A stretch of 32,000 bases of DNA from an uncultured bacterium (GCA_964640155.1 CAZXEQ010000007.1:30001-62000), one strand, 5' to 3'. Positions 1-24,900 are shown, counted from the stretch's first letter. Numbers and translations are program-made. The notes: generated from the sequence alone by a model not told the origin.

Positions 1-960
1 GTCAGACGACTTTTGCAAGAATCGCGAGCAGGTTCAGGAGGACCGGGAGAAAGACGTTCGCCAACTCCAGAAGATTTAGGTTCCATGGAAAGAGAAGATT
101 TTATTTATCCGCCCGGTTTAGGTCCCGATCCAATTAGACCTAGAGAAAGTGATATGGGGTTAGGCGTACAACCGTTGAGTCCAGATGCACTGCAGCAAGC
201 AGACCGTATCCAGCCAGGCCGTCCAGAGGGTTCGGGTCTTGTAGAACCCATTCGAACAGAAAATATTCTTCAATATCAAGTGACACCTTTGGAGGGTCGT
301 GATGGCGACTTGACTCCAGGAGGAGCAGGTTTTCGGATGATTCAAGAAGATACAGGTTCTTTGGGGTCAGGATTAGGAGATTGGAATTTAGGAGGTGCTG
401 ATTTTCAAATGGGAGGACTGGAAGACTCAAGGAATTTGGGAACAAGTGTTTCTCTTTTAAATCTTTTAATTTCTGGTTTAGAGAGATCTCCATCACAACC
501 TGATTTTCAAATGAATCGTTTGATAGATGAAAGTCGAATGACGGTTCGAGAAGGCTTAAGAGGTCCAGATATCAGTGGAGTAGAAATTCCTGATCGTGGC
601 AGTATTGAATTGTCGGGAGATATTTTACACCTTATGGCGGGTGGCTTAATGGATAGCAGAGGATTGGGTGCAGATATGACTTTAGGAGTAGCAGGAGCAG
701 GGTTTGGTTTGGGTATTTTCAATTTTGAAAATGCGACACGTCAGACAGGATCTACGACAAGAACATCAACAATTAATTTTGTTTCTTTATTTCTTTTAGG
801 CCCTGAGCCTTTACGAGGTGAACGTGGAGGATGGGAGGATTTTCGTGGAGAACAAGAGCAAGAAGGTGCTGAAGGAACGCCTGAAGAAATACAAGAACAG
901 CCTGCCATATTCTCAAGTCGTACTGAAAGACAAGAAGGGAATCGACATATTGTTACTGAA
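1..960 (+). other. Acidic Gly/Pro/Glu-rich low-complexity segment of the giant ORF with degenerate short repeats. Probably disordered.
   Basis: The translation includes PPGLGPDPIRPRESDMGLG and SGLGDWNLGGADFQMGGLEDSRNLG, followed by QPDFQMNRLIDESRM, then GGLMDSRGLGADMTLGVAGAGFGLG, and finally RGEQEQEGAEGTPEEIQEQ. DFQM occurs twice and L-x-D-[SE]-SR occurs three times. There are no Lys and no Cys codons. Confidence 0.5.
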
Positions 961-3900
961 GATACAATGGTAACCCGTGATGGCCGGACCACACGTACGC
1001 ATACAGAAATTACAACAGAAACTACAACCGATGCACAAGGTCGTGAAAGAACTCAAACAACGGTTCATCAGGTAATTGAGACCGAAGATCGTAGAGTTTC
1101 AAGAACATTTGTAACCGGGCCTGATGGACGAGTGACCGTTGCCACAGAGAGTCGAAATCTTAGAACAGGTGAGGTGGAATCAAGTCCAGCCTCTCCATGG
1201 CCAGAAGGAACGACAGTGACAACAAGGCAAGGTGAAAATGGTCCTGAGGTTGTGGTTACATTCCCTGCACATCCAGTGACTTCTACCAATGATCCTCATG
1301 TCGGACAACAGCGACAACTTCAAATTATTTACAACTCAGATGGAACAAGAACTCAAGTAGAAAATTATCGTTCAGCTGATGGGCGTACGACAACAGTTAG
1401 AGAAGACTATGACATCAATGGACGCTTTCAGCGGACAACCACTTCGGAAGGGCTTCCAGATGGGACTCGAATCAATACGAATGAACGTGGTGAAGCAACG
1501 GTCACACGTCCAGGCGCTCCTGAGCCGGCCCCTGCAAATCGTCAAGGTGTTCGTTGGACAAGAGAGCGTACACAATTTGGTTATGATGAACGTGGTCGTG
1601 TGGTATGGCAGTCCCGAGAGACAAGAGATAATTTTTCTTCTACAGTAACCAAGGTTGTCAGTCGCATGGCGTATGATCAATATGGCCGAGAGCGCGACAG
1701 GCAATCCAGCACTTTTGTGAATGGATATGATATTTCAGGTCTTGACGGAGAAGAAATTCTTAATCCAGTTGCTGATCCCAATGATCCTACAGGCAGAAGA
1801 CTGATTTCATTTGAAGTGCGTATCAATGGACAAGTCCATCGTGTTCAAAATATTCAATATTGTGGTCAAGGTGGAAATCAGATGTGCGGATACACCGTTC
1901 GAGATGCACGGGGTGGTGTTGTGATACAAGTCGAGAAAGCTTATGACGGACCTAATGGGGCTCTCTCAAGTACTCGTATTTTACAAAATGGGCAGTGGAC
2001 TACAATTCGAATGAATTATGATCCTCAGACGATGCGGCTTGCAAATTATGAAGTAGAAAGAAATGGACGTACAACTCGCATGACGGCTCATTATGATTCC
2101 CAGACAGGTCGAGCCGATGGTTGGGATGTTGCAGTCAATGACCAACCTACGATGCAGATACGTACCACAGATGATGGACAAGGTAACACCGTAACCACCA
2201 TTCGCAATGCCCAAGGAAATGAAATAGCGAGAATTGCTGTTGCCCGTGATGGAAACAATGGAAGAATTCGCTCCTATACTATTACGCAAGGTGGACAGTC
2301 TACAGTTTATGAACCTCAATACGAAGGTAGTCGCGTTATAGGCGCTCGTATTAATGGTCAGAATGTTCCGTTAGCTGAAGCCAATTCCAGATTTGCTACT
2401 TTGTTAGGCGGTTTTGGTATTCCATTCCCAGGCTCTTTAGGAAGTTCTCAATTGATGGGGCCTGATACAGCTCTTCAAAATACAGGTTGGAATATTGATT
2501 TTGTGAACACAGTTGAAGATCGCTCTACTCATACAGAGCGAGACGCACAGGGCAGGGCTGTTCGTGAAGAATCTCGCTGGAGAACCAGTACTGCAGGACC
2601 CGGTGTTGAATTTAGAAGTGTTGAAGATAATATTGTTTATAACGGCCTAGGTCAAAAAGTAGCTTCGCGTTTGATCAATGATACGATCGGTTTTTCAATC
2701 CCAGGTGTGGGTGCTGGGCATTGGGAATCTATTCGAAGAGATGCTCGTGGTAATCTTCTCTCAGGACGTTTTATTTCAGATAGTGGGCAAGTTGTGGACC
2801 TTCAAGCTGATTTTAATGGCCAAGATAATCTGACAGGTTACTCGATGACCATTGCACGTCGAGATGGAACACAGGTAAGACTCAATGTAGATGTTGATAG
2901 TTTGGGTCGTCCTATTTCTATTGAAATGACTACGCGTGATCGTCAAGGAAATCAACTTATGCAAGCCTGGACGATTTCCTATGATGAGCGTACAGGTCAA
3001 TCCACCTACAATATGCTGCAAACTCGGCTCACTACGCGACAAGGTGTTTCTTTTGTAGCACGTTATGATGAAAGAACACAGGGTGTTTCGAGCATCGAAA
3101 TTGTTGGTGCAAATGGACAAAGCATGGGGACTCTGACACGCACGGGAACAAATCCTGATGGGAGTATGGAATTTGACGTAACACGTGGCGATATGCTTTT
3201 GGGAACCATGCGTGTGACAATGGATAGCAATGGAAATTTCACCAATTTACGAGTCACTCCTCTGGAAGTTTATCTGGTGGGTGAAGAGGCCCAACATGCT
3301 GCTAATTTTTCTGCTCTTACGTCCATAGGTGCCATTTTTATAGCCGTAGCCATGGGAGGTGCAAGTTCTCCAGGCCGCTTCATGAATAGTCTCATCAATT
3401 CGCGCAATGATCAAACGGCAGTGTCTCAAATGAGAGCGCTAGGACTGGGAATGCCTCAAATTCTCAATCAACATTCTCAAACACAACAGTATTTTGGTTA
3501 TGACGAATCAGGACGATTAAATTATAAACATACCATTACAACCAAGCAGGGCGTTTTGGGCACTTTTGAAAATTGGGAGCGAACCACTTATGATGGCCTT
3601 GGCCGAGTTCGTGAAACCATTCGTCGTAATCGTGTGAATGCGGTTGAGTTGGGCAATGGACAATGGCAAGAGGGTTCTATCCGTAGAGATGCTCAAGGAC
3701 GTATTATTGAAGGTATTGTTATGATGGGAGACAATCCGGTTCGCATTCATGGAATTATTTATGGACCGGATGGAGGAGTTTCAGGCTATCAAATAAGTTT
3801 TGTTTCTGAGGGCATGCAAGTTACAGTTACTATTGGAGCGAATGGTATTCCTACTTCGTATTCTTATATAACTCCAGATGGAACCGGTAGTACGCGTGGC

Positions 3901-6900
3901 ATTCGTTGGAGTGGAAGCCCTGCTTCTCCAGGCTCTCAAAATATTACAGATCCCACTCAGAGGCCAGATGGTTTGGATAATATGGCATGGGCCAGGGGGT
4001 CAAGATGGATTGATCAAAATGCACAAGATCGTCTGTTCAATCAAGTGATGGGCAGAATGGTGGGAGATTTAAATAATGCTGCTGCATTAAACAATGTTCA
4101 ATGGGTTCCAGGTACAGTGACACGTGATGCTCAAGGGCGTGTGACAGGTGGAGTTATGGTCGTGGATGGTGTTCCCATTGCGATTAATGGCATTCAGTAT
4201 GACGATAATGGGCGGGTGAGTTGGTACAGTTTGGCTTATTATTGTCCCGATATTTTAGGTGGTAATGTTCCAAATGGACTTGTGCGTGAGAGAAGAGTGG
4301 AAGTCATTGCAGAAGATGGAAGAAATAATCTTCTTGAGGATCGGCTCATGAGCGTTCGAGATTTTTCAGGGGCACCACGAATGCCTGCCCCCGAACGTGC
4401 TTACGGTGGTTATGTAGATGCGACGCGATTAGAAGATATTGCCATTCTTTGGAGAGATGGACAATGTCTCCTGCCCCAACTTAGATTTCAAAATACGGAC
4501 CGAACTGTCACTGAAACCAATCAATATGATGATCATTGGCGGGTGGTGGTTGTAAATCGACGAACCACAGAAGCGGGCAAGCCTCGCTTTGTTTCTAACA
4601 GTGTAGATTTTCAAGAATGGAATGGTCTTAATCAAGTGGTTCATCGTTATAATGTGACCAGAGAAACCGGAATGGTCAGTGGACGGGCGGGAACAGCAGA
4701 AAATTCTGCAACCGTTTTAATAAATGCGACTACCACAACAACCTCAGATTCCTATATTCAGTATGATGGTTTTGGACGTGAATGGCATACCTCTACGCAA
4801 AGTTGGAGTTCAGAGCGACCTGGGCTTACCTCGCAAAGTGAACGCTATGTTACGCGTTATGATGTTTATGGAAGTCCTGCAGAAGGTTTTGAGAGAAGTC
4901 GAACCTTTGGGACCATGAGAATTCAAGAAAGAGAAATGCAGGGAGTTCAAAGAGATGCGCAGAACCGTATTACGTCTGGCTATTTTGATGATACCCAAGG
5001 TCGCAGACACTATTTTAGAAATATTCAATACAATGAAAGAAATGAACCTATTGCCTGGGAAGAAGCAGTTGCTTATCAACAAATGATCTTTGGTCAAGAT
5101 GCGCAAGGTAATTCCACTCAGGAATATCGTTATCCAACTGCTGCTGAGGCAAGTTATACACGCCAACAATTAACTCCAGAAATGAGAAGAAATGGGACAG
5201 CTCTTGGTGTTTTTATTAACTGGAATGAAGAAAGCTCCGGCTCATTTCTAAATGTATATCGTTCTGATGGAACTTTGGCTGCAAGTTTCCGTTCATCCGT
5301 TTCCAATGATCCTCGCCGTCCAGCTGTGACAGTCACCAGTACTGATGTTATGACGTTTGATCGCTTTGGTCGTGCTTTGAGTGTGCGTAATTGGAAACAT
5401 GAAGAGGGAGGTCGAGACCCAAGACAGGGTGGAACTTACAATGGAATTACAACCAGGGATATTCAGTTAGATGAAAATGGCCAGGTATCTGGAATGACTG
5501 CCTGCAGTAGAAATGGACAATGTATACAAGTGCGGTTTTTGGATGGTCAGACTTATGTTGTTTTGCCCAGTGGGAGTACGGTTAATATAGGTTTGTTTGG
5601 AGATTTTGGCGGCGGGTTTGAACGTGGAACAGAGAATATAGTTCGCGCACTTCTGGGTGGGACTTCTCGCATAGGCGTTATGGATGATCGTTCCATGTAT
5701 GCTGCAATTCGTCAGTATTTGATGAACGATAGTGGATGGTTGCGCGGGGTAGATGGTGAAACTGTAGAAATGATGACACAACTTTTGGTGATGATACTCA
5801 GTAATATTCGAGATAACTCTCCACGTAATGCGCAAGGCAATCCTATTTTGTCAAATGATCGAGCTTTCTTTACTCGTATTTTAAATGAAGCTTTTCAGAG
5901 AATATTTGGGGCTTCTATCAGTGTGGCTTCTTTGGCTGAAATTGCAAATGCATTGGCGGGTTATGTTCAGAATCCTCAGTACGGCCTTACCGGTTACAAT
6001 GCCGGATACCAAAATATCTATGGAGGTAGATGGAGAGCAAATTATGGCATAAGATTTAGCGAATATCAGGTGGATGATCAGGGCAATCCTACTTCCATGA
6101 ATCTTTGCTCTACCCGGACAGGGCATTGTGTAAGGTTAGAAAATCAAGGAGGCTCGCTTCGTTTGGTAGGTAATAACGGGGCTATAAGCATGGAACATTT
6201 TAGAAGTATGATGCAGTTTATGTGGTTTGGAGCAGGTATAGGTTTCTTAGAAGATTTGTTAGGTCAACTTAGTGGAGGACGTAGAACAGCAGCAGATCGG
6301 GCCACTTTTGAAAGAGCTTTGGTTGTGCGCGATTTCCCAAGAGAAGCTATCAATGTTATGTTACAAGTTTTTGATACAAACCGTGCGGGCGGAGCAAATG
6401 CCATGCGAGAAGCTTTAGGTGCCTACTTTATGAGAACTCTTGGAATCAATTATGAAGATGCTGTCGGTATTTTACAAACTTTGTGCGGAGGTCTTGGCTC
6501 TACTATACCAACTCCAGAAATTCTTCGTTTGACAGACAACAGAGCTCTCCTTTTACGCGGTAATAATTATGTGAATAGCACCACTTATTCTGAGAGAACT
6601 TTTGTTCGTGATAGCTTTGGAAGAGAAATCGCGACATTTTCTCATACAGAAACTGAATATGGATTGGGTGACGAAAGGCGAGTGGTGGGTCGTGAAAGGC
6701 CTACAGATTCAGTAACCTTCCAGAACTATGGAATGGGAGGAGAGGTTACAGGCCGATTCACTTATAATCGTATTGTAAGTCCACCGGATGGCTGTCGCCG
6801 CTCAGATGGTCTTTGTGAGGGATTCGTTTATCTCTATAGCTCTCAGGCTCGTTCTGATATTCGCTACAATAGTAATTTTCAAGAAATTGGTCGTATAGAA

Positions 6901-9900
6901 CGTACAGAGCGTGAATATAATCCGACAGATACAGATCCAAATAAACGTCGTCCCGTGGTAGAGACTAGAAGCGTTTGGAATGTTCAATATAATGCTTTTG
7001 GTTGGGAAACTGAATATCAATATGTTCGTATCGTTTCGGGCATTCCTCTACAGTACAATCCACATCAAGCAGCTGCAGCAACTACTTCAGGAAGTACTTC
7101 TAGTAGCTATGATGTCGATAATCATCAATTACAATGTATTGGAACCCCTAACAGCGATGGTTCTTGTCGTACAGGTTCAGGAGTCGAACGGGGTAGGATG
7201 CGCATTGTTTATGATGCTCATGGCAATCAAATTGAACAGCAACATTTAGATCTTCAATTTGAATTTCCTCCTACATCCAGTGATACTGGCATTGTAGGTT
7301 GGGAGTCTATCCCAGGTCTTCCGGCTGTCGATGATATCTTCGGTCGATGGTTAGAAACCACAGAATTTGCAGATCGTTATGATTTTACGGATCGCGCTCA
7401 TCCTCGAGCTAAAACCACTCATGTTATTCATCAAAGATTCAATGATGTCGGCCGTATCACAGAGGAATGGACTTCTGAGTTGGGTAGAGATCCGGATCCA
7501 AGTCGAGTAGCACGCGATATTGTTTATGATGCTGCAGGCAGGCGTATCTTTTCTCGCACACAGTCCACATCGACGGCCAATGGTCAGCAAACCAGCACGA
7601 GCTCCATCACTCGATCTTTTTATGACTTTTATGGCCGTATGAGAAGATCTATTACTCAGTCAAATAGTTCTTCTCGTAGTACGGATGAAGATGTTGGATC
7701 AACAAGTCATTCAAATACCTATTCACAAACCCTTATCGATGCAAACGGGCATTCTCAGACTCGTACTGAATCTCAACAAACATCTCAGCAATATGATAAT
7801 CGGGATTTGGGCGATCATTTATTAGAAATGATTTCTGATTATCGCTTCTGGCTGAGAATTGCTTCGGCAGTTGCAGGAACAATTATTGGCTGCCCGATTT
7901 GTTTTTCACTGCTTATTGAAGCTGCGATCTTGGTAGTTGAGGGAGCTCGTGGAAATCTCAAAGGTCGTGAAGGTTGGGCTGTTTTGATGGCCTTTGCAAA
8001 TGTTGCATTATCGGCTGCGGGGAGTGCGATTGGAGGCAGTAATTTGCTTGCAGGAGGTTTTGCGTTTCAAGCCACTGCAAATGCGGGCAGAATTGCAGCT
8101 CAAACAGCCATTAGTCTTGCAACGAATACAGCTGAGCAACTCATTGGAGGTATCGTCAGAATTTACGTTGATAAATTAGTAAACAATATTATTTGCGGTA
8201 ATGAAAGCGGACAGGGTTGCGGCAAGGAAGCAGGTCGAGCTTTTCTAAGTGGTTTGATCAATGCAGTCATTATGGCTCCCGTGAGTGCTTTGGGAAGCGC
8301 GGCCAGTGGAGGTAATTTTGGAAATGCTCTTTTAAGATCAGGTGTTTCAAAAGCAATTGGTGTGTTCACAAAAACTATGTCGGTGATAACAAAGCCCTAT
8401 GAAGATAAAGATTTTGAAGGAATGTTAGAAGACAGTGGTTCTAATAAGGGTGAATGCAAACAGGGCGCTACCTTTGATCAATGCCGTTCGATGAAGGAAG
8501 GTAATGATGCGCATGACTTAATGTGGAATGCGATTGGAACAGTTGCTAATTCTCTGCTGGATCGCTTTGTGTTCAACCCCATGCAACAGGCTCAAGCAAG
8601 GCAAGATTATGCAGATCGATACATTCGTCAAAGGATGGATTTGGCGATGGAAATGAAAATGAGAGATTTTGATACATGGAAACAGCTCAATAGCATTCAA
8701 AGAGAGCCTGATCAGGACCGTCGTATCAATCAATTGCAGGCTTTCTTAAGAGACGAAGCAGTTGGACGCTTTGATCTTTCTAGAAATCAGGCACGGGATC
8801 TTCCTTCTTTAACAAGATTTCGTGCACAGTTAAGAGATTTAGCCACTGCATTCAATAATTTATTAAATCAATTTAATAATACAGATAGCGTTGTTGAACG
8901 TAATCGTATTTTAGGCAATATGGGTGTTATCTCTGGCGTAATGGAAGCGTTTGTTCATATGGGGCAAAATTATTTAGATTCAGATGGAAATATTGCTGCT
9001 GAATATGCACGTGATCCTGCCTTTAGAAATGCTATTTCCGCAGTTCAAGTGGCTTTAGATAGAGTGGTGGATGCGATTCGTAGAGGTGATTGGGGTGAAG
9101 CGTCTTTCAGATTGACGTATGAAGTAAGGGGACTTATCAATACGGTTGAATCCTTGCGTGTTTTAAGACGAGAAACAAATGAAGGCTTAAGGACGTTGAC
9201 CCAACAATATCAAACAATGTTACAAAATCATCCTGAAATGAGAGCTCAAATGGCAGAGTTTGGTCAACTTCTCGACGCCATCAATGATTGCATGAGTAAA
9301 GAAGGAAATATGGACATTGATCGTGCGGTCGCCTTAATGGGAGTGGCTCGTCAGGCATTTGGTGGTTTTTCAGATTTGGCTGACGCAGGGCGTCTGTTAA
9401 GAGGTTTAGAATCAGCTTCACCTGAAGGTCAGACGGCTGCCAGCAGCCGACGAGCAGATTTAAATGCAGCGGTGAGCTTGCTTCAAGGAAGACTGGATGC
9501 CATCATGGATTTGGTTCCTGAAATTCGTGAGGGACGAGTGGATCAGTCAAGATTTGCGGCTCTTTCAAGAGAAATTCTTCAAGCTAGAGCGGTTATTACT
9601 GCAGTTCAGGGATTATCTCAAATTACTGAAGCCAGACGTACCTTGGATGCAACTGCTTCTGCGATTGGAAGTCCTACTACTGCCAATGCCGATGCAACTC
9701 GTCGTTTGGAATTGGCCCGTCAGGCTTTGGATCAAGCCGAAAATCGATATGAAGCTGTATTAAGAGAAATAAGAATAAACCGAGAAGGTCAGCGTGATCT
9801 AACACATATTGATTTGGCTAGAGCTGAAAATAACATCACAGACGCCAGAACATTTACAGGCATTGGAGAAGCTTTAGGAGCTTATGCAGACTTTAGTCGC

Positions 9901-12900
9901 AATCAAGAAAGGTCTGCGGCTTTACAACAACTTAGCCAGACAGAACATCATAATTATCCACTGGCTTTAAGTCGTATTGAGGATGCTTTTGGTTTACTGA
10001 TGAGAGGAACTCCGGCTGGGCGTGCAGAAGCTCAAGCTCGATTGTCTCAAGCAGGAGCAGCTTTAGCTCAGTCACAGGATCCAGGTCCTGCCAGTGGAGA
10101 GCTAACAAGACGTAGTTTAAGAACTTTGGGAGAATCATTAAATACAGTTGAATCAGGAAATCCATTATTTCAATCTCGACATCAAGTGAGAGATTCTATT
10201 GCTCAAATGCAAGCTGCGGGTTTAAGAACACAATTGTTCGAATCTTCAAGAACAGATAATCGTGTTGCGTTGACACAAACGATTCTTAGGCTTTATGGAG
10301 ATCCCGGAGCTCAATTCCCATTAAATCAACCTTGGGAAAGAGTGGCTCAAATAGCATTAGGGAATGGGCCTTTCTATAATGGCGGATTGGCTGAAGCGAT
10401 TCGTGCTAACACAGGTGTAATGCAAGGAGCTCATCCGGCTTTAAGTGAGTATACAGCTTTTATTGATCAGACTGTAGATCGCATGATGAATACTCAAGAC
10501 CATAATGTTTTGAATGACAGTGGACGAGCCCTCTCCTTAGCAAAATCAGCCATGCATGTTGCGATGAGAAATCTTGCAGCCCCTCAGTGGGAATCCAGTA
10601 ATCGTTATGTTCAAGCCAGGAGCGAATGGTCACGCGACGTGATGGCGCATATTGGTCGCTATGTGGATGCGATGGGCCGGGCAGGAAATCCGTCTGTCGA
10701 AGATTTCATGCAATCAAGGCAAGAAGGTCCTCAAGGCTATCAAGATGTAGAGCGAGCAGGCTCAGCCCAGAGAGAATCGGAAGGAAGATATATTGGTACA
10801 GCAACTCGTGCTCAGGAAATTTATGGCCTTTTGGCTGCTCAACCAGAATTAGAGCGTTCTATTCGAGTGACCATGCGTTGGGTCGATCAGGAAGGCACTG
10901 CTAATCCTTTCCGAATGGTGATGCCAGGAATGCCTTCCTCTCCCGTTTATTTGCCGCAAGAGCAGCCTGGAGAATCAAGACTTGATGTGCATATTGAAGT
11001 GATTGATCCTCTGTTGGTGGGGACCAATCCTGAGACCCAAAGAGATCCTTTGACACAAACAGAATATCAAGTGAATCGTACAACAGGTCAAAGATATCTT
11101 GCTTCATTCTCGGATGGTCAAGTTGTGATTAGAAATATGACTGAAAGAAATGAAACTCAAGAGACTGGAAGGACCATAGTTCGTGGTCCTGAAGGTAGAA
11201 TTGCTCAGGTCACAAATTTTTCAACATCGATGAGAATCGAAAATTCATCGAGCCAGACAGCTCAAAATGTATCAACAGTTACAATCACTTATCCAGAAGG
11301 TGCACCTGTTCATTCTCCTCAAACAGTGACACGGACAACCAATGCCGATCGCTCTATGACGATGACATTATCCGATGGCAATAGAACGGTACAAATTCCT
11401 GCGCCTAGAGGCAATTATAATTATGCCCCTATGAATTTAACAACAGAGGGAGTCAGCATTCAGGAAAGTGGAAGACAAAATCCGACATTTCTTTATGATG
11501 CAGAAACGGGTGGGTCGGCGGTTGTTTCAAGATATGATGATCGTGGGGTTCCACAACAAATTTCGTTTACAAATAGGGATGGTAGCTCAAGAGATATTCG
11601 TGTTACTTCCAGTGAATCAACAGGCTTTGGTTTTGAAGAAAGAGATAGCCAAGGCAATGTTCTTCAAACTAGATCTTATTCAGATACCAGAGGCCGGGCT
11701 TTGGATTTAAGACTCACAGCCAATGGATTTACACTTCAGTCTCGCGATTCTCGAATGCCTATTGGTGGATTCGATGCAGCGACTGCTTCATTCCTAGAAT
11801 ATGACTGGACAGGACGTCGCTTAAGTGGTGTTCAAAGAATTCAGGAGCATTTACAAGCTGATGGTACCAGGGTGCGAGATCTTACCAATACGCAATTTAC
11901 CTATCGAGACAATGACTCCAGTGTTGAAGTCAGAAGCTTAAGAGGACGTCGGGTGGCTGCTGACGGAACGATTAGCTATAGCCAAATCATGCCTGTTCAA
12001 ACCATTTCTAGTATGGGAGAAGCTAATGCCCGAGTGATGCCTGGAGGCGGAGTAGAACTGACAGACGCCAGTGGTGTAATTTACAGAGATGGAATGACCC
12101 GAGATCCTAGCACAGGTCAGGAAACCTCTTACAATCAGGCTGTTTATCGGGACTTCCGTATTTATAACGCAGCAAGTGTTGTTACGCTTACTCCAGAACT
12201 TCAAAGAGATGCTGCAGGTTTTGCCAGACGCGATGCCCAAGGTAAAGTCATGGGAGTTGAAGGTCATGACACGATTCATGCTGTGACTTATGACGCAGGA
12301 CTCATTACCTCTATTGATCATCGTCCGCTTGCTGAAGCTAATCAAGCTTGGGGAATGCGCGTTGCATTTGATGGCGACAGAGCTAATTTCACATTTACTG
12401 GTGCAGCTGCTCGTGGCATGCTTGCAACTCATGGTACAAGTTTGAATGGTGTGACTCGCGCTAATGCTCGAATCGTCGAACGAGGTGATGGCGGTTTTGC
12501 TGTCCAACGTCGTGATGGGGAAAGTTATACTGATGTGTTGATTGAACGCATTAATACAGAGCCAGGAGAACATCAAGGCGAGCATACGAGAGATACTGTA
12601 GAACCTGGGCATCCCACGATGGATTTTGATCCTGAGGGACGTCCGATCAATTGTGTGCGCACTACTTTTGACAAAGTGACTATTTATCGAGGCATACAAT
12701 GGGTTCCTGCTGGACCTCAAGGTTATAACATTCGAACAGGGTATATTCTGGAAACACAAGCCAATGGGCACACCATTGAAACAGTCTATGAGAGAGTTCG
12801 TTATAATGATCGTGGGCAGCCTGTTGCGAGAACGATTTATCGTACCGAAAATGGTGTTAGGACTGATCAAAGTGAGGAAATTGCTAGAAATCACAGAGAA

Positions 12901-15900
12901 ACAGTTGAGAGGATGACCAAAAATATCGAAGATATCGGTAGTTGGTACCAAGCTCATCGTGGACTTATTCCGGCTCAGAGATCTGCTGAAATTGACGCCT
13001 TACTTGCCATGCCCATTGATGGAGAACATGGCTTAGTGAATATTGATATTCAAAGTTTTACGGAAGAAGTTCGGGGAGTTGACAAGACGGGTGAAGATTT
13101 ACATGGCCGATACATGACTCCAGAGGTTTTAGGTCTTATTGATCGTACAGCTCAAGCTTTAAGAGACACTCCTTCTCTCTCAGGAATTCCGCAAGCACGA
13201 AGAGCTGAATTTGAAACAGCCCTGAATGCGAATCGTGCAGATATTTTAGGAAATTTAGCTGAAGTTCTTACCATTATTCGAGAACATCGAGACTTACCTG
13301 TCCAAGCGCTGGAGCCTACGCGTGTTGCTTTAAATAGAGAAGAGACGTTTAGACAAGTGGCAAACCGCTATGGCCAGGTTCAGTCCATGCGTGACGAGGC
13401 AAGTAGCTATGCTACTTATCAAACATCATCCATTCCTGATGCAACAATTCGTGGAGAAGTTCAGGCTGCTATTAATACCATTGGTAGAAATTTAAAATTT
13501 GCTGCAGATCGATATGGAGATGAACTCAATCGTGCATTGGAAGATCTTCTTAGTGGCGATTTTTCTCGAACTGAGCAATATCTTGGAAATCCAGAACAAA
13601 GACGTCGTGGTTCGCTAGATGTCTTAAAGGGTGAGTACGATTTGGCCGCAGATCATTTGTTGAGAAATGCCGGTAGAGCGGCCGAACTTTATCGCGCTTT
13701 GAACGCAACATCAACTGCTCGAACCACCGTTCAATGGAATGGCCGGCCGGTTACACGAGAAAGAGCTGGCAATATTTTAGCAGCTTTTAGAAGTGGAATA
13801 GGCTTAATGGCTCAAGGGTCTGATTCTTTAAGGCAATCAGATGACACAGTGCGTCATGCGGGTGTGGCTATTTTAGAAAGAGGAAATACAGGTGTCAGAT
13901 TCTTAGAATTAGGCGACCAATATATTCATACAAATGTTGCTACACAAGATCGAGGGCTTTATGAACGAGCCATGGGTCTTTTTGATCAAGGTTTGGCTTC
14001 TTATAATAGTTCTGTGGGTCGTTCTACTCCTTATGATTCAAGCATTATACAAAGAGTTTATCGGCTTTTGGGTGATGGACAGGGAATTACCGGTTTCCTT
14101 TCTTCAGCACGTACTTTATCCGATCTTTCAACAAGCCGTCGTGAACGTGTTTCAGCCCAAGATTTTGAACGTCTGGCTAGTGGTTTACATACAGCACATG
14201 ATACAGGTGCAGCTATTACCTCAGAAAATTATCAGGGGCTTTTGAGAACAGGACAAGATCTTGCAAATCGTGTTCGCGCCCAATATCAATTAGCTTTTGC
14301 AGCTTTGGGTGAACATGGATTAACTCGAGAAGTTACTGCTGTTTTTGATATTGCCGAAGGGATGGGAGAATTTACAGGTCGTATTGCAAGTCTTGCGGAA
14401 GGGATTCAGCATTTGACTCGTTTCTACAGCCCAGCCGCGTCCGATCAGTTTTCTGTTGTAATACGAGCGTCTGAAGTAACTCAAGATTTAAATGCGACTA
14501 CTGTACGAATGGCTGGATTTATCCGAGAAGGATTGGCTCAGACAACTTATCTGAGTACACGCTTCTTAGCTCAACCTGGAGCGATTGACGTTAAAGCTCT
14601 TCGAGAGGATCGACGTTATCAAGCCCTTGAGGGAGCTGTTCATAATGTTTCCGTAGGTCAGAGAATTTTAGAAAATGAAGCAAGGTTTAGCCAAGCGCCT
14701 CCAAGAGGTCTTGATCGCGGAATATCCATCGAAAGTGTGTTTTCTCAAGATTCTGCTCAAAGACTTGAAAATGCTCTTTCAAGAGTTCGTGCAACACCTG
14801 AGGAAATAGCCAGCTATCGATCTGTTTATAATGAAACGTTAAGATTTCATCGAGAATCTTTGCAGGCCTATGCTCGAGGGGATGTCAATAAAGCAGACAG
14901 TCTTTCTCAAGCGGCTGGAAAAGGATTCTCTATTCTTGAAGAGTTGACGGGTCTGGTTCGTGAGACTTTGACTGAACGAGGCAGTATCATTGCTGGAGAA
15001 TATGTTTCAACAGAACCCAGGGGAGCGCAAGGGGTTTCTGTACGGACTTATTGTTCTACAGCTCCGTTGGCTTTGGCCAAGGTGAGATATTTGAATGTTG
15101 CTGTCGCTTCGTTTATGGCTAGAAATTATGATCGCATTGAAGATTTTACGGCTGCTTTTAGAGAGGCTTATCGGGAAGGTCGTGAAATATTGAGGGCCGA
15201 ATTTATACGTGCAGGTCGCGTTGAGCTTAATATTATGCGTACGACCGATCGCGAAGGAACTGTCACCTGGCAGATTCAATCAGGCCGACAGGGAATTCAA
15301 CGTTATCTGGATCGAGGTGGAGAAGGTCTAAGAATTTTAGCTCGCGGTCTGACGCGGGAAGCAGTTGGACAATTCCAAGGTGTGGTGGTTCATTATTTTA
15401 ATAATATCGATCAAGCCCGCAGGGATTTAAGAACCACAGAACAGACGCATACTTCCGTTGAAAACTTAAGAAATCTAGGACCGCGACTTACGACTGAAGA
15501 AACAGCACTGAATCAAGGGAAAGCTAATATTGTTGATTCAAGATTAACTCATGAGAGAGTTCTGAATCGTCGTGCTTTGGCTTTATTGAATGATGGACGT
15601 TTTAACGAATCAGATAGAACTTTAAGAATTTTGAGCACTTATCAACATATTACTGCGACATTCATGAATGCAACAGCTAGACGATCAACTACAGGTGGAG
15701 TAGAACTTATCTACAGTGGAAGTAATAATTTAAAAGATCTCAATGGTCATAAATTACCTCCAGACCAAGCGATTGTTTTAGCTAGGGAAAATGCAGATCA
15801 TACCATTGTTTATGCTCCTGAAGCTCGTACACAGTTAGCTCAGATGCAAACAACTTATTTAGCTCAACACTATACTTTGAATGATCTTTATCATTCATCA

Positions 15901-18900
15901 GCTTTTGCAGTTTTAACCTATGTAGTAGCGATGGCCAATTTAGAAGACGCTGTTGTTCGGGGAGATGATGTAGCAGCTCAAGAGGCCTCAGCTCAAGCTG
16001 ATGCTTGTGCCAATCCTTCTGATGAATCGGGGCTTATTGCGTCTGCAATGGCGCGTGAAGGTTTGGGAGAACTCAATAAGGGGACCAATGCGGTTCTTTT
16101 TGATGTAGACGGGGGTCCCCATAATATCGCAGGCGTTCTTCAAGATTTGGATCAAAGATTTGAAAGAGGCATTCAGCTTTTTGTGGATAGACAATACGAC
16201 AGAGCTTCTTCTGAGTTCAGGGAAATCGGACAGAATTATCAAACTTTGACAGCTTATGTAAATAACTTTGGTCAATTGGATGAAACAGGATTCAGAGAAG
16301 GTCAAGGCAATATGCAGTCCATACGCAGGTTGTTAGCGACCTTGAATATCACGGTTCCAACGGGACCTCTTCAAATCACACCAGAGCTTATCACTCAGGT
16401 TCTTCGTGCTTGGGAATCCAATCCTGCTCATGAAAGCAATCTTGTTCTTAAAGCAGGCTTAGTTCGCTTCACAATGCTTGTTCATATTCGACAAGGAATG
16501 GCCCATTTACAAACAGCTCGTGAAGCCATGATGCGTGGAGATTGGATTTCGGCTAGACACTCGACCACAAGGGCTACGCTTTCTCGGGAAAATGTGCAGG
16601 AAAGAGAACGTACGCTGCGAAATGACACTCTTCAAAGAGAGTTTTATGAAGGTTGGGATGAGCAAGTTGGAGGAAACACTGTTCATCATAAAGGCTTTAA
16701 TGAAATACGAGATGAGATTGCTCGTGAGCAGTCCACCTCGTCTACAACACTTTCTGAAAGAGAAGCCTTAGGCGAGAGATTAGGACTAGGACAAGGGGCG
16801 GTGATTAGAAGTGGAACGTTGGCGAATTTGCGTAGCAATGCAGCTGCAAGAAATGCGGCAGTGGAAACCTTGTCCGTTCGGGCAGGAGTCATTGGACTCT
16901 TAAATTCAGAATTAGGAGCACGAGGTCGTATCTTAAATTCGCTGAATACTCTTCTTTCTCGGGATCATCTCACAACGGCTCAAATGGATAGAGCTGATCG
17001 TATGTTGGGAGTCGTTTCAGTTTCAAGGGATAGGGCTAATTCTATTGATCAAGCTTATAGCGAGGGGCGCATACGACTTGATCGTACTCATACCGATGAG
17101 GAAGGGCATGTTGAACGTAACTATACAGACAGGACAGCTCGTGGACGCCTTGTAATCGATCTGCGTGATCCCAGTGGGCAGTCGGTTCAAATTGAATTGG
17201 CTCAAGTTCGTTTCGGGGTTTCTCAGAGGGAAGGTGTGAATCAATGGGTTAATTTTGGGGTCAATCCTTCAGGGGTTGGAACAGGTGATGTCACAGCGAT
17301 AGGAAATGCAATGGCCCCATTTGCCTTTAATGCTCAGATGGATCAGCTTGGAAGCTCGGCCTATCTTTTCCTTCAAAGAGAATTAAATTTTACTCAGGTT
17401 TTCCAACAAGGGGAACAACATGGATGGGAAACAGTTCCTCTTCAGTCCTTTGATAAGCTTAACGCTTATAACAATGCCTTTAATGCTGTTTCAGCCAGAG
17501 ATCAGGTGACTTTTGCTGCAACGACAGGACATCCAATAGCGGTAGGAGCGATTACGACGGCTGTCGCAGAAGTGACGAGTTCACAAGCCTATCAAAATGC
17601 GGCTTCTCTTGCGCGACAGGGAGCCATGTTCATTATGTTGGGTAATTTTAAAGCAGCTTCAAATATTTATCAGGAAGTAGCTTCTCAATATCAGGAGATG
17701 GGGACGTATGAAGTTCAGCGAAGCGCAAATATTCAAAGACAAGATGCTTTGAAAGCGGAAGTCATTAATAATCCTCATGGGAAGACAGCAGAGGCGCTTC
17801 GTTCATTAGGTTTATTGGATGCGAACGGGCGTATTCAGTTTGGCTCCAACGGAAGTCCAGCCGCATTGAATCAATCTTTATCCCGTTTTTTACTTGTTCC
17901 AGATCTTGCCAATACAGCAAATGCAAACACGCTTTTGGGTGATGTTATTTCTCCTAGCACTGCAGGTCTGATTCGTACAAGTCTGACGCAACAAGGCCGC
18001 TTTTCTGAAAGTAATCTTCGAGATGCCCAAAATATGTTGGCAAGTTTGATCTTAACTCAGCGTTCTAATACGGAATTGACTCAGGCTTTAACTGCGATGA
18101 ATAGTGGAGATCATACGGCGGCAACAAAGCATATGGAGCATGCTCAAGTTCTTACCCAAGCTTCATCACATATAGCTGCATTAGTGGGTATCCCAACTGG
18201 TAGTTATCGAATGGGTTCTACAGGGCCTCTTCGAACGGCAACTCAGGTGGTTACAGCTGTTGTGGCAAAGGTACGTGAACTGATAAGCACAGACAGTGCC
18301 ACTCGAAGGGCTGAGATCAATGTAGAACTGGGTGCGATGCAAGCGGTCATTACAGCGAGGCAGACGGTAGATCAGGGGTTAGCAGATGCGCAGCGCACGC
18401 CCACCAGTGCAATTATTCAAGAGGCGACGCAAGGAGATCGCGAAGCTTTGATGAATTCTTTAGGGCTACAAGGAGAACAAAGAACAAATTTTGAACATTT
18501 GATTGAAAGATATATCGCTAATGAAGAAAGTGGGAAAGAGGCTACAGCGGTAGGTGATAGACGCCGAGAGTTAGAACATCAACGTTCTCAAATTGTGGAT
18601 CAAATTTCTCAAACAATAAGTCAAGCTTTGACAAGAATGAACATTAATAATGTGTCTGATTTGGAGCGCCATACTGCAGGACGACCTAATCATATGACAA
18701 TGCTGAGAAGTTTTGTACAGATTACAGAACTTCAAAGAAAAGTTGAGCGCGGAGAAACTTTGACTCAGGCAGATATCACGACCTTAAGAAATGCCGTGCA
18801 AAATTCGGCAAATGCAGGAACATCGCCAAGGGCTTTTTATGAGAGGTTTACAGATGGTGTCCAACATGGGTTTGGATCTGCTAGGCAAAGTCTTGTCAGT

Positions 18901-21900
18901 TCATGGAATAATCTTATCGCAGGTAACATTACCAGTGCTTTCAGAGATTTAGGTGTGACTTATGGAAGATATTTAAAAGCTGCGTTTTTGGATACATTCG
19001 TGGGTTATTTTCGACATGTTATTTTAGGTGGTGTCACAGAAGGCATTGGTTATGGAGCCCGTATGGTTTGGGGGCTTGGAAAATGGGCTGTGGCTTCTGC
19101 AACCGCTAATCGTCCGGATAATTTTGATTATTGGGTTTATGTTGAAGAAGGTAGAGACACGCGCGAAGTACAATCTACTGTTCTGGATACCTCAGGCTTA
19201 CGTGCTGCAGAAAAAATTTCTCGTTCGGGTCAAGGAGATACAGTGGGTATTGGAGGTCAAACCCTCGAAGAATTCATGAATAGCTCTCAAAGTTTAATGG
19301 ATAATATTCAAAGTCAGCAGGGCCAAATTGAAACTCTTCGTCGTCAGCCTATGACAGAAGCTAATCAGCAAGCCCTCACTTCAGCTTATATGGACCTTCG
19401 TATGACTGTCGGAAAATTTACTGATGGGCATTTAAGCTATCAGATTCATTCTGCGTTGGTCGATGCTCATTACGATAAAGTAGATGCTCAGAACCGCATT
19501 CGACATGAAGAATATCTAAATAATGGTAATGACACACGTTCTCTTCAGAATTTGGCTAATATGGCTCAAGAGGTTCAAGAGAATGGTCAAACAGCTTTAA
19601 ATACTCTTGCAGTAACGCGACAAGAAACTTCACGTGCCATGAATCTTCAGGAGATGGACAGTGCATTTTCAAGAGGTGAAGGTAGAGTGGGAGAATTTAT
19701 CGCCAATGCTCAAAGAGTGCATGGGCTTAATAATCTCATCACTCAGGCTTATGATATGACGAAAAGCCATGGCGGATTTATGGACCTTTATCTTGAATTT
19801 CAAGATGCTTGCACGGGATTTGATGCGCACAATGGAGCAGTTGCTTTACGTAGGTTGAGCACGCAGGCCGAAGGTATGCTTTCTACTTATCAAAGAACGC
19901 AAATCGTCAATCAAACTGCTTTTGAAGGCCTTTCATCAAGCATGCAGGATCGAGTGACTCAACTGAATGCAGCTATCAAGTCAGGTGAAACAAGATTTGC
20001 CATTGTGCAATTTGTTGTCATTGATGTTGGATTAACTTTAGTGACAGCAGGAGGAGGTTTGGGTATACGTGCGGCAATTAAGGTAGCTTCCGAAGCTGCA
20101 ATGGAATCTGTAGCAAGAAGACTAGCAACACAAGGTGTTGAAGTTATATTGAAGGATGGAGCTAGGATAGCAGCCAGAGATCTTGTGAAGGAAGTAGCCC
20201 AAATTGGTTTAGGAGATGTTATTCGGTCAGTAGCATGGCGTGAAGCAGTGAGAGCAGTAGGTACTTATGCGGGCCAATACGTGTTGGCTTTTGGGCGAAG
20301 CCTTTTTACCCATTATTTTGCTAAAGAAGGTGCTGTTCGACAAGGTTTGGAAAGATTAGGGAAAACGGTAGGCAGAGAGGCTGTTCCCCAAGGTGCAAGC
20401 CGTTTACAAAAAGTTTTGAGTCATTGGGGTGAGCAGCTTCAGCGTATCAATCCACTTCGCGGGGCAGGTGCTGGTTTTGAACGTTCAGGAGTGATTGAAT
20501 TATTGGGCTCCATGCGACATGGTGCTCACACGTTTGCGATGTTGGAATTCATTGGCCCCATTTTAAATCCGATTATGAATCATACTTTGAATCCTGTTCT
20601 CAATCTTGTTGTTGATTTAATGAATCGTGCTGGAATTCAAGTGGGTCATATGCATGAAGCTCCTTCTGTAAGTTTTGGACAGTTGATAACGCTCAGAGGC
20701 TTGGAAGCTCATTTAGGACGTGTGGCAGATGCCTATATGAGTGGTTTGAAAATGGGTCCTCTCTTTTCTTTTCAAATACCCGGCCATATTTTTGCCGTGG
20801 GAAGTGTAGGTTTTAGATTAGCGGCAGGGGGTTTTTATGGAGCACTTGAGCCGATGATGCGGCGCGTTGGAGCGCAGGCTTTGGGCAAATCTGTTTCTCA
20901 GGCGGTAAGAGGTGTTCTCTGGCCAGCAATTCGTAGAGAGGTTGAAGGAGGGGCAACAAAAATTCTTTGGGGTAGAGTCGCTCAACGTGCAGCTCTTTCG
21001 GTGATTACAGGTCCTCTTGCTATGAGTGGTTTTATGGCTCAACAGGTAAATGGTCTTCTGATGTTCAAGGTCGCGGAGGTGGGTGTTGAATTTTCAGTTC
21101 GAACATTCTTAGCGCTTTCAAATACAATTGGAGGAACGCAGTTCACAAGCGAACAGATAGAGCACATGGTCGCAACAGCGAAAGAATATTCTTTCCTATT
21201 GGTTCCAACGATGACCCGTCATATGGAATCTGGATTGGCAGCCATGCGATTTGCAGATACGATGCTAGAAGGTGTTCGTGGTCAGGATGGGTCTGTTCAA
21301 GTCCAATCGATGACTGAAAGAATTGCGAATAGAGTAAATGAAATGACGGGTGTTCTTACTGCTCATGTTACAAAGATGCATGAGGCTACAAATAGTGATC
21401 AGTTTAATGCTGCGAGTGAGGCTTTACGTGCGGAATTGGAAAAACAAGGTATTGAAGCACCTGCAGAGCTTCAACAAGCTGAAAATGCTTGGAGAGAAGC
21501 CCAAGCAAATTCAGTTGCTCCAAAAGAAGGTGAATCTCTTCCTGCTCCTAATCGAGAAGCAGCTAGAGCACCTAATCTCGATGCTTATAAAGAGCGCGTT
21601 TCTTCCTTGAATGAGCCTTTAAGAAGAGCCGTTGAAGAGGGAGGAACAAAAGATTTACGCTTGATTCAACATATTTTAGAAGGTAGAACGGGTGCTGCTG
21701 AGCAGATTTTAAATGATCTCTTATTATCTAGACCCGGTGATGCTATTTCTGCACTGCAAGGTGTGGCAAAACTTTTTGAAGCTGCACGTACTCACATGGA
21801 AGAATCTGGGATTCACATGAGTGCGGAAGCCTTTGTTCAAAGTGTAGATCCTGGAGGTAGCGTAAGACATTTAGTGGAAATAGCCGCTCGAGAAGGTTTG

Positions 21901-24900
21901 GCAAATGGTCCTCATTCAGAGTTGTTGTCTACGCTTACTCATATTATGGAAGCGAGCCGAATGACAGAGCGTAGTGACGAGCGTGGCATGCGAAAAGCAA
22001 ATGAAGCTTTATCTAAGCTTGTTGAGAGAGTTGACTCTGAATTGATTGGAGATGCTCAGAAAATTAATGATGAACGTGTAGGTGGAGCTGAAGAAAGAAA
22101 AACTAATCTTACAGAAGCTCAAGAGTTTGCAAATAGAGAAGCCGAACATATTTTAAATGTTCAAGAGGCAGCTAGGGCTGCTGCTGTTTTAGGAATGGAA
22201 TCTTCATATGCCATGTCTACGCATGAGAGAAATGCTCGAGAAATAGGAGAAGGCCGGTCTATCGTAGATCGTGCTTTATTGAATGAAAAAACAGGGGCTC
22301 GTTATGATCGCTTTGTGGCTGCTTCGAAAGAAGCTGTTCAAAGAAGTCGCGTATTTGATAAGGCGACAGGATCTCTTGCCTCAATTCCTTTTGCTCAAGT
22401 ATTAAGGGTTCATTTAGCAAATCCAGAAGGAGCACAAAGAAATATTGCTGCTGCTCGATTGCTTCAGAATCACGTACAAGGTTTAGTTGCAAAAGAGGGT
22501 GGAGCAGTACGTGTGGTAGTAGGTTTTGTCGCGGATGCTTTATCAAGATCTGGACGAGAAGGTGCTTTAGGCTCGGGAATGGGATTCCGTGATGGAACAA
22601 TTGGCATTGAAGGTCAAGAAATGATGGGTGGACAAAGGGGTGAATTAAGAACGGAGCTTCAAAAAACTTTGGCTGCTGTTTCTGAAGTCATGCGTCTTCT
22701 TGAATCTAACGGCGGCACCGTAACAGTGGGTGAATATCGACGTCTAATTGAAAAAGCTACTCCATCACAAAGAGACTTGATCAATGCCATGGTCGATGTG
22801 AGGTTAAGTGGAATTGAAAATGTTGAACAGGTTTTGGGTGAAGCTTCTGCTCGTTTGGGTGATCGATTAAGCGACAATCAAGACATGAATTATCTTTTGA
22901 ATGTTTCAGCCATTATAGGATTGAAAGAAACTGCTTCGCTTGCAGAAGTTGTTGAGACAGCCAGTAAAATTAAAGATTCAGAAGTGGTAGGAAGACTTCT
23001 TGGATTTGGAGATAATGCAAAAGCGGCTATGGAGGTTTTAAAATCCCTAACGGGTATTCGAAACAAAGCATTGGCTGAAGAGGTCGGAAGAACCAGCTTG
23101 GCCGATGTGAGAAGAGCGATTGGCTCAGGAGAATTAAGGTCCCTGATCCAGAATGCTTATCTTCGTTTGAGTGAAAGTTTGAAGGGAAATGAAAAGGCTT
23201 GGCAAGAAGCTTATCGTGAATCTACAGATATTGCGAGCTTGAATGAAAACAGCAAAATTTCTGAAATTGTAGCATTGGGTGAAAATGTTTTAGGTGAAGA
23301 TTTAGCTTATCGTTTGGCTGCAGAAAATGTCTTGTTTGTTATTGAGGGTGGAAGGGGTTTTAATCTATCTGCTACACGTGCTTTAGCTAAGGAGCTCGCT
23401 TCTCTTGTTGAAGGGGGTAGTTTGAACCGATTGTTGACCTTATCTGAGGTAACTGAATTGGCCGCAGTTCGTTCTGAGAATAAACAAAATGGCCATGAAG
23501 CGATGGTTGTTCGCATGGGTGAAATGTTAAGAGAAAGAACAACTGAGGCTCGAGCCATTTCAGAACAAACAGGGAAAGTGGTAGAGGCTCTTGTGCAATT
23601 GTCCAGAGAGCTTTCAAAACCTGGCGTGAGCGCAACCCAGCTTCATGTTGCAACGTTTATGCGCGTGGCCGCAGCTGCCGGACTCTCTTTAAGTTCTGTG
23701 ATTCTTTTAAGCAGCTCTAAAATCAGTGGAGCCGTGGCAAAATTGATTGAAAAAATGTTGAAAGGAACTTCGATCGAGCTTCTTACAGAAGGCGCGAGAT
23801 ACAAGATAGGAGAAACGACCTTAGAAACTTCAAGAGAAATTAGCTTGCAGGATATGGCTGATTTAATCGATCAATTTGCAGAGATGCCTTCTTCTTTAAG
23901 CCAAACTCAGCAAGATCGTTTGAATGTAATCAGTGAGACTTTGGGTAAAGAGCGAATGGAAAGAGACTCCAATGTTCAAGCAAGAGAACAGATGGAAGCA
24001 GATCTTCGTACTCTCGAACATAGACAAGAAAAGGGAAGTGCTGTAGAGGATACAAGAAGACAGATTCAGGAGTTGAATCAAAAGATTACGCAAGCCGATG
24101 GCAGAATTACAACTTTAGAAACAGAAAGCAGTGCCATCGTAACAAATGCTCAAGTCGATGCTTCTCTGAATGGCTTCTCTCGTCAAGTAAATGAGATCAG
24201 TGAATCTGTAGCGAGAGAAAGTGCGACCCGGGACATGAATGTTTTAGAAAGACAACAGTTGGAAGCGGAAGTTGGGGTTGCAGGAGGTAATAGAACTGAA
24301 GCTTTGGCCAAGATTCAGGAACTAAATCAAAAAATTACAGAAGCAGATAACAGAATTTCACATCTGGAAGCAAAAAGTCTTCAACTGAGTCGTTTCAGAG
24401 AACTGGGGTTAGAAGTGATTCGGGATATGTATCGAAGAATTGCTTCTGAATCAGCAACACTTTCAACCCTTGCGACGACACGTCAATATCGACAAGCTCT
24501 TGAGAGAATGCTGAGTGAAAGAGCTCCTCCGACGCAAGAACAAAAATTCGCGATTGCACTTGCCTTGCGTGAATCCCTTTTTGGAGGAAGGGATTCTATT
24601 GGCGCTCATGAAGCACAAGCCTACTTTGAAGTTGCTATGGAATTTTTATCTCCAGATGGCAAAGGCGGATTAAAACCTGCACAAAAAAGATTGTTTACAG
24701 AACTTCTTCTTGGGAATATTCCTGTGGTGGGCACCGGAGGTGGAAAAACCTTAGGTCTTGCGGCTTGGGCTGTGGCGCGTGCCTTAATGGATCCTACCGG
24801 TAGCCGCATGATCATCGTAGACACCGCTGCAGCATCAGGAAAGTATGCAAGTTCTGAGACAGAAGGGACCATAGGCGCTTCTTATGCAGAAGTCTTTAAA

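Follow-up and report, generated by a model that had tools for sequence, protein, structure and literature searches.

We describe here block I, a beta-rich region with turn motifs of the tyrosine-aspartate (YD) type, found in a 32,000-nucleotide stretch of DNA from an uncultured bacterium (GCA_964640155.1 CAZXEQ010000007.1:30001-62000; hereafter the window). Block I occupies positions 961..7791 of the plus strand, that is amino acids (aa) 321-2597 of the window translation, and was recognised by its motif enrichment, its internal similarities and its composition rich in beta-formers. It lies inside a single giant open reading frame (ORF). The interpretation that we favour, with a confidence somewhat above even, is that of an exported YD-like beta-hairpin scaffold. 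Block I would serve a giant multi-pass membrane protein as its extracytoplasmic repeat scaffold, and at its cytoplasmic C-terminal end this protein would bear a divergent SecA-like ATPase. An earlier note on the same DNA had read the region as a YD/Rhs-type block without the canonical Rhs ends. This reading is partly supported: by profile thresholds block I is not a member of the Rhs/YD family, and it is YD-like at the level of the motifs and of the local fold.

Block I contains 12 YDxxG motifs for a mean of 0.56 in shuffled sequences (maximum of 5 in 1000 shuffles), 19 DxxGR motifs for 1.44 expected from shuffles, and 60 occurrences of the loose turn motif [DN]x0-2G[RNQK] for 18.9 +/- 5.1 in shuffles. 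The remainder of the translation (8,389 aa) has just two YDxxG. As a control, RhsA of E. coli was examined and has 11 YDxxG in 1,377 aa, and the density in block I is about 60% of this value. The motifs of block I are spaced by 25-32 aa, against 21 in Rhs. The "dozens" of YD-type motifs announced by the earlier note were thus recovered for the loose turn motif, whereas the strict YD motifs number about a dozen. Nor do these motifs fill some 6.8 kb, as had been proposed, since linkers interrupt the block, as do a hydrophobic segment and a pair of helical bundles (about aa 1874-2015 and 2064-2162). A poorly modelled region (aa 495-628) and a Gly-rich linker (aa 807-904) likewise belong to it. 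The composition of block I is uniformly rich in beta-formers.

Comparison of block I with itself by BLAST produced 28 off-diagonal similarities, against 1-5 in shuffles. Judging from its sequence, block I is a patchwork in which modules of three kinds were duplicated long ago. No tandem repeats were found at the DNA level in block I, which indicates that these duplications are old. The first kind is the double-YD module, present in four copies, each with two YDxxGR motifs 30-32 aa apart and each delimited by module alignment: module 1 (1558..1770, aa 520-590, plus strand as for all features below unless stated; YDERGR and YDQYGR, 30 aa apart), module 2 (3475..3687, aa 1159-1229), module 3 (4738..4950, aa 1580-1650) and module 4 (7501..7713, aa 2501-2571).

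The second kind corresponds to the four paralogous units of about 45 aa that had been noticed earlier, here called RDAxG units, which were recovered at the coordinates given in the earlier note. They are true paralogues of 45-60 aa, as shown by pairwise E-values with scores above those of composition shuffles (best score 25 bits). Units 2 and 3 (3646..3828, aa 1216-1276, and 4084..4266, aa 1362-1422) are 42% identical over aa 1213-1267 and 1359-1413 (E 3e-13). Unit 1 (2698..2880, aa 900-960) matched the region of unit 2 with E 3e-6 and 33 bits over 91 aa, and unit 3, which contains the string IQYDDNGRV, matched unit 4 (4921..5103, aa 1641-1701) with E 1e-4 and 28.5 bits over 68 aa. Each RDAxG unit looks like two hairpins, with an RDAQGR turn followed 25-27 aa later by a Y(D/N/G)xxG turn. 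The weaker fifth copy proposed in a second beta-rich region further downstream (block II, 10921..12900, aa 3641-4300, delimited by composition) was not recovered as such: it amounts to an RRDAQGK string, and a hidden Markov model (HMM) of the four units gave it -0.3 bits, inside the null distribution (maximum 1.8). The third kind consists of two tandem modules that form a non-YD insert (5437..6495, aa 1813-2015 and 2016-2165), each with a four-strand meander and a helical bundle according to a low-confidence model; the pair aa 1815-1859 and 2016-2061 was detected by BLAST with E 2e-4.

The sole relative of block I that we recovered is P0004, a 222-aa product that is 37-40% identical to aa 1477-1692. 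It is encoded by a 1,042-bp JGI metagenome contig (Ga0255800_10452432, sample 3300023220) and was found by a full HMMER search of aa 830-2029 against 1.84 billion representatives. The second match of this search was a spurious low-complexity protein. P0004 retains double-YD module 3, with both YD motifs, and RDAxG unit 4, and this conservation speaks for a constraint on these motifs. On the contig a frame change occurs around nt 322, before the homologous frame, which is closed by a stop at nt 990; this reflects either an assembly error or a decayed copy. No match and no Rhs relative was obtained with block I in a word-index search of 5.8 billion proteins, and when the aligned block segment and P0004 served as the query, P0004 itself alone was retrieved. 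No related locus was found in collections of genomes, metagenomes and viral contigs scanned with the block and with the alignment, tblastn of block I against 72,556 plasmids recovered nothing, including no Rhs relative, and blastn against phages gave no match.

The relationship of block I with the Rhs/YD family was examined with profiles at several scales. Intact block I did not match Pfam RHS_repeat, the RHS core, or the NCBIfam YD-repeat and Rhs-core families, even at E<=10. The same profile search on E. coli RhsA recovered RHS_repeat with E 1.5e-68 over 14 stretches, as well as the RHS core, DUF6531 and Ntox34. The absence of any RHS/YD profile above cutoff in block I is an outcome that the earlier note had itself listed against its own reading. 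Block I was also scanned against Pfam as 75 overlapping segments of 60 aa. RHS_repeat, the cutoff of which is 22 bits, was the sole Pfam family matched by three segments, at independent sites that all remained below threshold and that correspond to the first YD of double-YD modules: aa 501-560 in module 1 (13.2-13.4 bits, E 0.11-0.13), aa 1161-1220 in module 2 (16.7 bits, E 0.0098, the best of the three) and aa 2481-2540 in module 4 (12.5 bits, E 0.21). A control scan of 74 segments covering aa 3641-5900, including block II, gave neither RHS_repeat nor any recurring family.

When a profile of the double-YD modules was compared with 177,635 PDB sequences, the three matches at E<=10 were all Rhs proteins (8h8a, 7q97 and 8h8b; E 0.6-2.7), and in the alignments the hydrophobic-x-YDxxGR context agreed with the core of the canonical repeat. 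Comparison with the RhsA repeats by hhalign gave a probability of 58%, confined to an 11-residue motif core. An HMM of the E. coli RhsA repeats produced weak matches on the window protein, the best with 7.5 bits at aa 2397-2414. Searches of PDB sequences by phmmer with block I and with aa 2181-2597 returned nothing meaningful. The segment scan and the double-YD profile, together with the structural matches described below, favour a remote YD relationship of block I.

The single-sequence AlphaFold2 model of aa 321-1100 consisted almost purely of successive beta-hairpins, with RDAxG unit 1 modelled as four strands (mean predicted local distance difference test score, pLDDT, 56.5; predicted template modelling score, pTM, 0.32). 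The best-modelled part is a Thr/Arg-rich beta-hairpin array (961..1485, aa 321-495), supported by AlphaFold2 and Foldseek; over aa 321-480 the 10-residue block means of pLDDT were 72-87, with strands of 7-15 residues and tight turns. A further beta-hairpin array (1888..2400, aa 630-800) was modelled entirely as strands, with pLDDT of about 56-83 (the block means of model residues 310-470), and this part of the block harbours an internal duplication (aa 595-674 and 674-775, E 4e-7). In a Foldseek search of the PDB with the aa 321-1100 model, the top 20 matches were all YD shells, with E from 4e-13 to 2e-8. They comprised teneurin-2/3/4, the fly teneurin, RhsA (7q97), the Rhs cores of S. bongori and Advenella, Tse15 and TcdB2-TccC3. 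The next matches were DDB1 propellers at 6e-6 and worse, about seven orders of magnitude behind. Internal similarities tie the modelled part to later parts of the block (for example aa 526-585 with 1165-1224, and aa 876-991 with 1193-1304).

Several features pointed to the location of block I in the cell. Close pairs of cysteines (C-x2-9-C) account for 16 of the 28 cysteines of the translation, and the eight pairs all fall within aa 621-2828 (window 1861-8484). Five of the eight are located in block I, at hairpin turns (C621/C629, C1835/C1841, C2036/C2043, C2265/C2272 and C2379/C2389), and the other 7,800 aa contain isolated cysteines and one adjacent CC only. This sequence pattern suggests disulfide-stapled hairpin turns in an oxidising compartment. 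Block I is also strongly depleted in lysine, with 9 Lys for 228 Arg (K/(K+R) of 0.04), despite a G+C content at third codon positions (GC3) of 0.28. More generally, K/(K+R) is 0.03-0.09 in the N-terminal ~5,700 aa (window 1-17100) and climbs stepwise to 0.58 in the SecA-like part (aa 9501-10666, window 28501-31998). The arginine codons are a mixture of AGA and CGN, which indicates that the depletion does not result from recent mutational drift. The homologous stretch of P0004 has 17 Lys and 7 Arg, against 1 Lys and 24 Arg in the window. The lysine depletion of the N-terminal part looks like a compartment-specific "lysine desert".

Block I runs straight into a cluster of hydrophobic helices (7843..8310, aa ~2615-2770; hydropathy peaks of 2.49, 1.68 and 1.75). 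Across the whole protein, hydropathy reaches 1.5 or more in eight peaks, which group at aa 2628-2765 and from aa 6666 onwards. The putative transmembrane (TM) cluster after block I is an exception within the Lys-poor region, K/(K+R) being 0.5 at aa 2601-2850 against 0.04 in its flanks. Taken together, the cysteine pairs, the lysine depletion and the TM cluster that follows suggest that block I is extracytoplasmic. In the middle of the block, a hydrophobic Gly/Ala-rich segment (FSALTSIGAIFIAVAMGGA; 3307..3363, aa 1103-1121) has a mean Kyte-Doolittle value of 1.82 over 19 aa. We rejected it as a membrane span because both of its flanks bear the "outside" signature of lysine depletion with cysteine pairs; judging from these flanks, the segment probably does not cross the membrane. 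It may instead form a buried core, a re-entrant element or a membrane-active one.

The canonical Rhs terminal signatures are indeed absent from the window, as had been noted earlier. The regular expressions PxxxxDPxGL and DPxG[LIVMW] found nothing in the 10,666 aa, whereas RhsA, the positive control, has PVTNTDPLGL; neither the Rhs core (PF03527/TIGR03696), DUF6531, PAAR nor a toxin domain was found in these 10,666 aa, nor any VgrG-linked region in the window. Block I gives way not to a short toxin domain but to the hydrophobic helix cluster, and the ORF goes on for over 8,000 aa, in agreement with the more than 24 kb of further ORF previously announced, which continues in the same frame without a stop. 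Block I is therefore not an Rhs toxin cassette. The sole PxxxxDPxG string of the protein, PTMDFDPEGR (aa 4205-4214, window 12613-12642), is located in block II, as is the RRDAQGK motif. It ends in R instead of L, chance alone would yield about 0.1 strings of this kind, and no NCBIfam Rhs-core match was obtained there; it is probably another DxxGR turn.

According to the scenario that we favour, block I would have grown via old internal duplications of the double-YD modules, the RDAxG/IxY units and the meander-plus-helical-bundle modules. Its hairpins would use the DxxGR-type turn of YD repeats and form a long antiparallel sheet of the YD-shell kind, and the whole most likely branched off very remotely from the YD-repeat superfamily. 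Besides remote YD homology and an outside location, we infer a role as a scaffold or in adhesion: block I could act at the surface as a rigid shell or tube, stapled by disulfides, in display or in contact with another cell, as opposed to toxin encapsulation and release. A number of observations weigh against this scenario. The curated cutoffs of the RHS/YD profiles were not reached, the intact block gave an empty hmmscan result even at E<=10, and the profile of the 45-aa units showed no relation either to the PDB or to the RhsA repeats. The Foldseek TM-scores are about 0.1 and the pTM of the model is 0.32; these TM-scores imply that the local hairpin pattern alone is matched, not a closed shell. 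Against viral structures (BFVD), the best matches of the aa 321-1100 model were MORN-repeat proteins and tail fibres, so that the query behaves like a generic long hairpin repeat, and the PDB ranking may reflect the longest beta-hairpin repeats available. Within the model, the region with the clearest YD motifs (aa 520-590) has a pLDDT below 40. The AlphaFold model of aa 1401-2600 has a pLDDT of 33 and displays two helical bundles only; it was not used for fold searches, and for over half of block I the fold is thus extrapolated from internal similarity and composition. Finally, the topology is based on hydropathy, cysteine pairs and lysine bias and not on a dedicated predictor, and the function is purely what we infer.

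A first alternative is a beta-hairpin repeat unrelated by descent to YD/Rhs proteins, in which the DxxGR turn would have arisen by convergence; the candidates would be the "antiparallel beta-helix tubule" of Omnitrophota giant proteins or a MORN-like sheet. The lack of a profile match at threshold, a likeness to the RhsA repeats that spans just 11 residues, a hairpin period of 25-32 aa instead of 21, the MORN-repeat and tail-fibre matches in BFVD and the report of RHS-like but novel tubules in such giant proteins (bioRxiv 10.1101/2023.11.21.568195) would all fit this alternative. It accounts less well for RHS_repeat being the sole recurring Pfam family of the segment scan, at three independent sites and at none in the control, for the retrieval of Rhs proteins alone from the PDB by the double-YD profile, and for the agreement of the hydrophobic-x-YDxxGR context with the canonical repeat core. 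We therefore consider convergence as rather unlikely. An ordinary Rhs or polymorphic-toxin cassette with an overlooked core, cleavage site and toxin is in turn scarcely credible. The number of YD motifs is on a par with E. coli RhsA and the PTMDFDPEGR string of block II could be cited in its favour, but none of the expected domains (Rhs core, DUF6531, PAAR, toxin) and no DPxGL motif exists in the 10,666 aa. Downstream of the block, the frame continues with putative TM helices and over 8,000 residues, and the string at aa 4205, where no Rhs-core match was obtained, resembles another DxxGR turn. This possibility is effectively refuted within the window.

As another alternative, block I could be closed. 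Around 1,900 beta residues would then form a cage, a YD cocoon of the teneurin or TcB-TcC type, whose content would be part of the same polypeptide, such as the hydrophobic segment aa 1103-1121 or the bundles at aa 1874-2162, as non-cleaved cargo or plug. In teneurins, YD shells do occur within large membrane proteins and in the absence of the DPxGL protease. The length of block I falls within the range of TcB+TcC shells, its best structural matches are closed YD shells, and its non-beta inserts could sit inside such a cage. There is however no sign of closure in a model with TM-scores of about 0.1 and a pTM of 0.32, plug, core and protease signatures are missing, long linkers cut the beta regions into 5-6 pieces, and the model of aa 1401-2600 reaches a pLDDT of only 33, which makes a closed cocoon clearly unlikely in our view. 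The "cocoon-scale" of the earlier description holds only for the length of the block, closure into a cage being hypothetical in view of the same TM-scores, the same pLDDT and the non-beta inserts. A still bolder idea, which we regard as very unlikely, is that block I, perhaps with block II, might be a non-cleaving, membrane-tethered YD-type cage or tube around its own hydrophobic and helical inserts, which the SecA-like motor at the C-terminus would thread out of the cell. Encapsulation and delivery would then take place in cis during cell-cell attack, and the near-complete replacement of lysine by arginine would guard what is exported against lysine-directed modification or proteolysis.

The architecture of the window is that published for giant SecA-domain proteins, and block I is best filed with their RHS-like beta regions. 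Giant proteins found mainly in Omnitrophota combine a huge ORF, hydrophobic clusters and a divergent SecA without detectable wing domain, and are otherwise unannotated (bioRxiv 10.1101/2023.11.21.568195). RHS-like but novel antiparallel beta-helix tubules of ~1,500 aa have been described in the giants of Omnitrophota (West-Roberts et al., 2023, bioRxiv 10.1101/2023.11.21.568195), and a group of giants has PF07517 as its sole Pfam domain, most of them being sequence-unique (Nielsen and Lui, 2026, bioRxiv 10.64898/2026.06.07.730766). The window protein resembles these giant SecA-domain multi-TM proteins (the "Archaeovorin"/Dockerin-type of Omnitrophota and the PF07517-only group) in having a single ORF that exceeds 10,000 aa, clusters of hydrophobic helices, SecA_DEAD and SecA_PP_bind as lone Pfam matches above threshold, towards the C-terminus, a near-lack of sequence relatives, and large unannotated beta regions, RHS-like in the description of those authors. 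It differs from them in several respects: the outer helices that line the tubule of the publication at regular spacing are absent from the aa 321-1100 model, the Pfam scan of the window detected no glycosyl-transferase, HEAT, dockerin or TSP3 domains, and YD motifs and lysine depletion go unmentioned in the two papers (West-Roberts et al., 2023; Nielsen and Lui, 2026). By analogy with this published class, we would propose an adhesion or contact role for block I.

Among known YD shells, that of teneurins is comparable as a YD-type hairpin sheet within a large membrane-anchored protein, with neither DPxGL self-cleavage nor a released toxin. Teneurins were the top Foldseek matches (E 4e-13), yet with a TM-score of about 0.1. 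The NHL propeller, FN-plug, ABD and Tox-GHH of teneurins had no Pfam matches in the window, which also lacks RHS_repeat at threshold, and the hairpins of block I are longer and interrupted by linkers and helical bundles. With the Rhs and TcB-TcC cocoons (RhsA 7q97, Tse15 8uy4, TcdB2-TccC3 6sup), block I shares the YDxxGR core with a hydrophobic residue two positions before, a similar number of strict motifs (12 against 11 in RhsA) and a beta-hairpin architecture, and these cocoons are among the top structural matches. In contrast to them, block I has no RHS_repeat at threshold, Rhs core, DUF6531, PxxxxDPxGL protease or C-terminal toxin, its motif spacing is 25-32 aa instead of 21, and it is internal to a far larger ORF. 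The SpvB and TcdB mid domains, the RHS repeats and the TcC protease of Tc toxins were likewise not matched in Pfam and NCBIfam.

Giant bacterial proteins are almost wholly unannotated. If a remote YD-type array is really present in this dark region, the YD-shell architecture would reach beyond toxin cassettes and teneurins, and a surface shell or tube would provide a concrete structural hypothesis for a class of proteins to which contact with prey or host cells is attributed. One would also conclude that standard RHS profiles miss such regions, which call for searches by windows or by structure. The implications for Rhs biology are modest, as the present evidence does not point to a new toxin-delivery system. 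The Lys-free exported half of the protein is possibly more surprising than the YD-like block itself.

Concerning the rest of the window, frame +1 is stop-free across its 31,998 bases, against 444-866 stops in each of the other frames. The giant ORF (1..31998, plus strand) has 10,666 codons and is open at both ends, so the window lies within one gene, whose full length must exceed 10,666 codons. This ORF occupies the window, which contains no neighbouring genes, and GC3 is 0.28 throughout it. The only above-threshold Pfam matches in the window are SecA_DEAD (E 3.7e-21) and SecA_PP_bind (E 8.7e-6), both near the 3' end, and the NCBIfam scan of the window translation found nothing relevant. They define the divergent SecA-like ATPase (29077..31560), with a Walker A motif GTGQGKS at aa 9780, a preprotein-binding domain and a second nucleotide-binding domain (NBD2). 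P-loop_SecA scored 22.1 bits there, below threshold, and matches to canonical SecA were weak (24-26% identity). No match to SecA_SW was found in the window, which ends ~170 aa past NBD2, so that a wing domain could lie beyond it. The SecA-like part is taken as cytoplasmic since the use of ATP requires it.

Some minor features were also observed along the ORF. The region preceding block I (aa 1-320, window 1-960) is rich in Gly, Pro, Leu and Glu, free of Lys, and displays recurring GLG and DFQM strings; it matched no family and is probably a disordered linker. The longest antisense ORF (window 11938-12957, minus strand, 339 aa, with an ATG start) was judged spurious as a real gene, having no meaningful Pfam match. 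The purine richness of the coding strand probably gave rise to it, and the GC skew of the coding strand is +0.1 to +0.26 throughout the window. A second P-loop, GTGGGKT (aa 8244-8250, window 24730-24750), is located ~1,500 aa upstream of the SecA-like domain; the surrounding aa 8151-9000 had no match in Pfam, and this region may represent another ATPase module, still more divergent than the SecA-like one. Two tandem coiled-coil-like units of ~65 aa were also identified (aa 7974-8043 and 8063-8126, window 23920-24378), which are 43% identical (E 3e-10).

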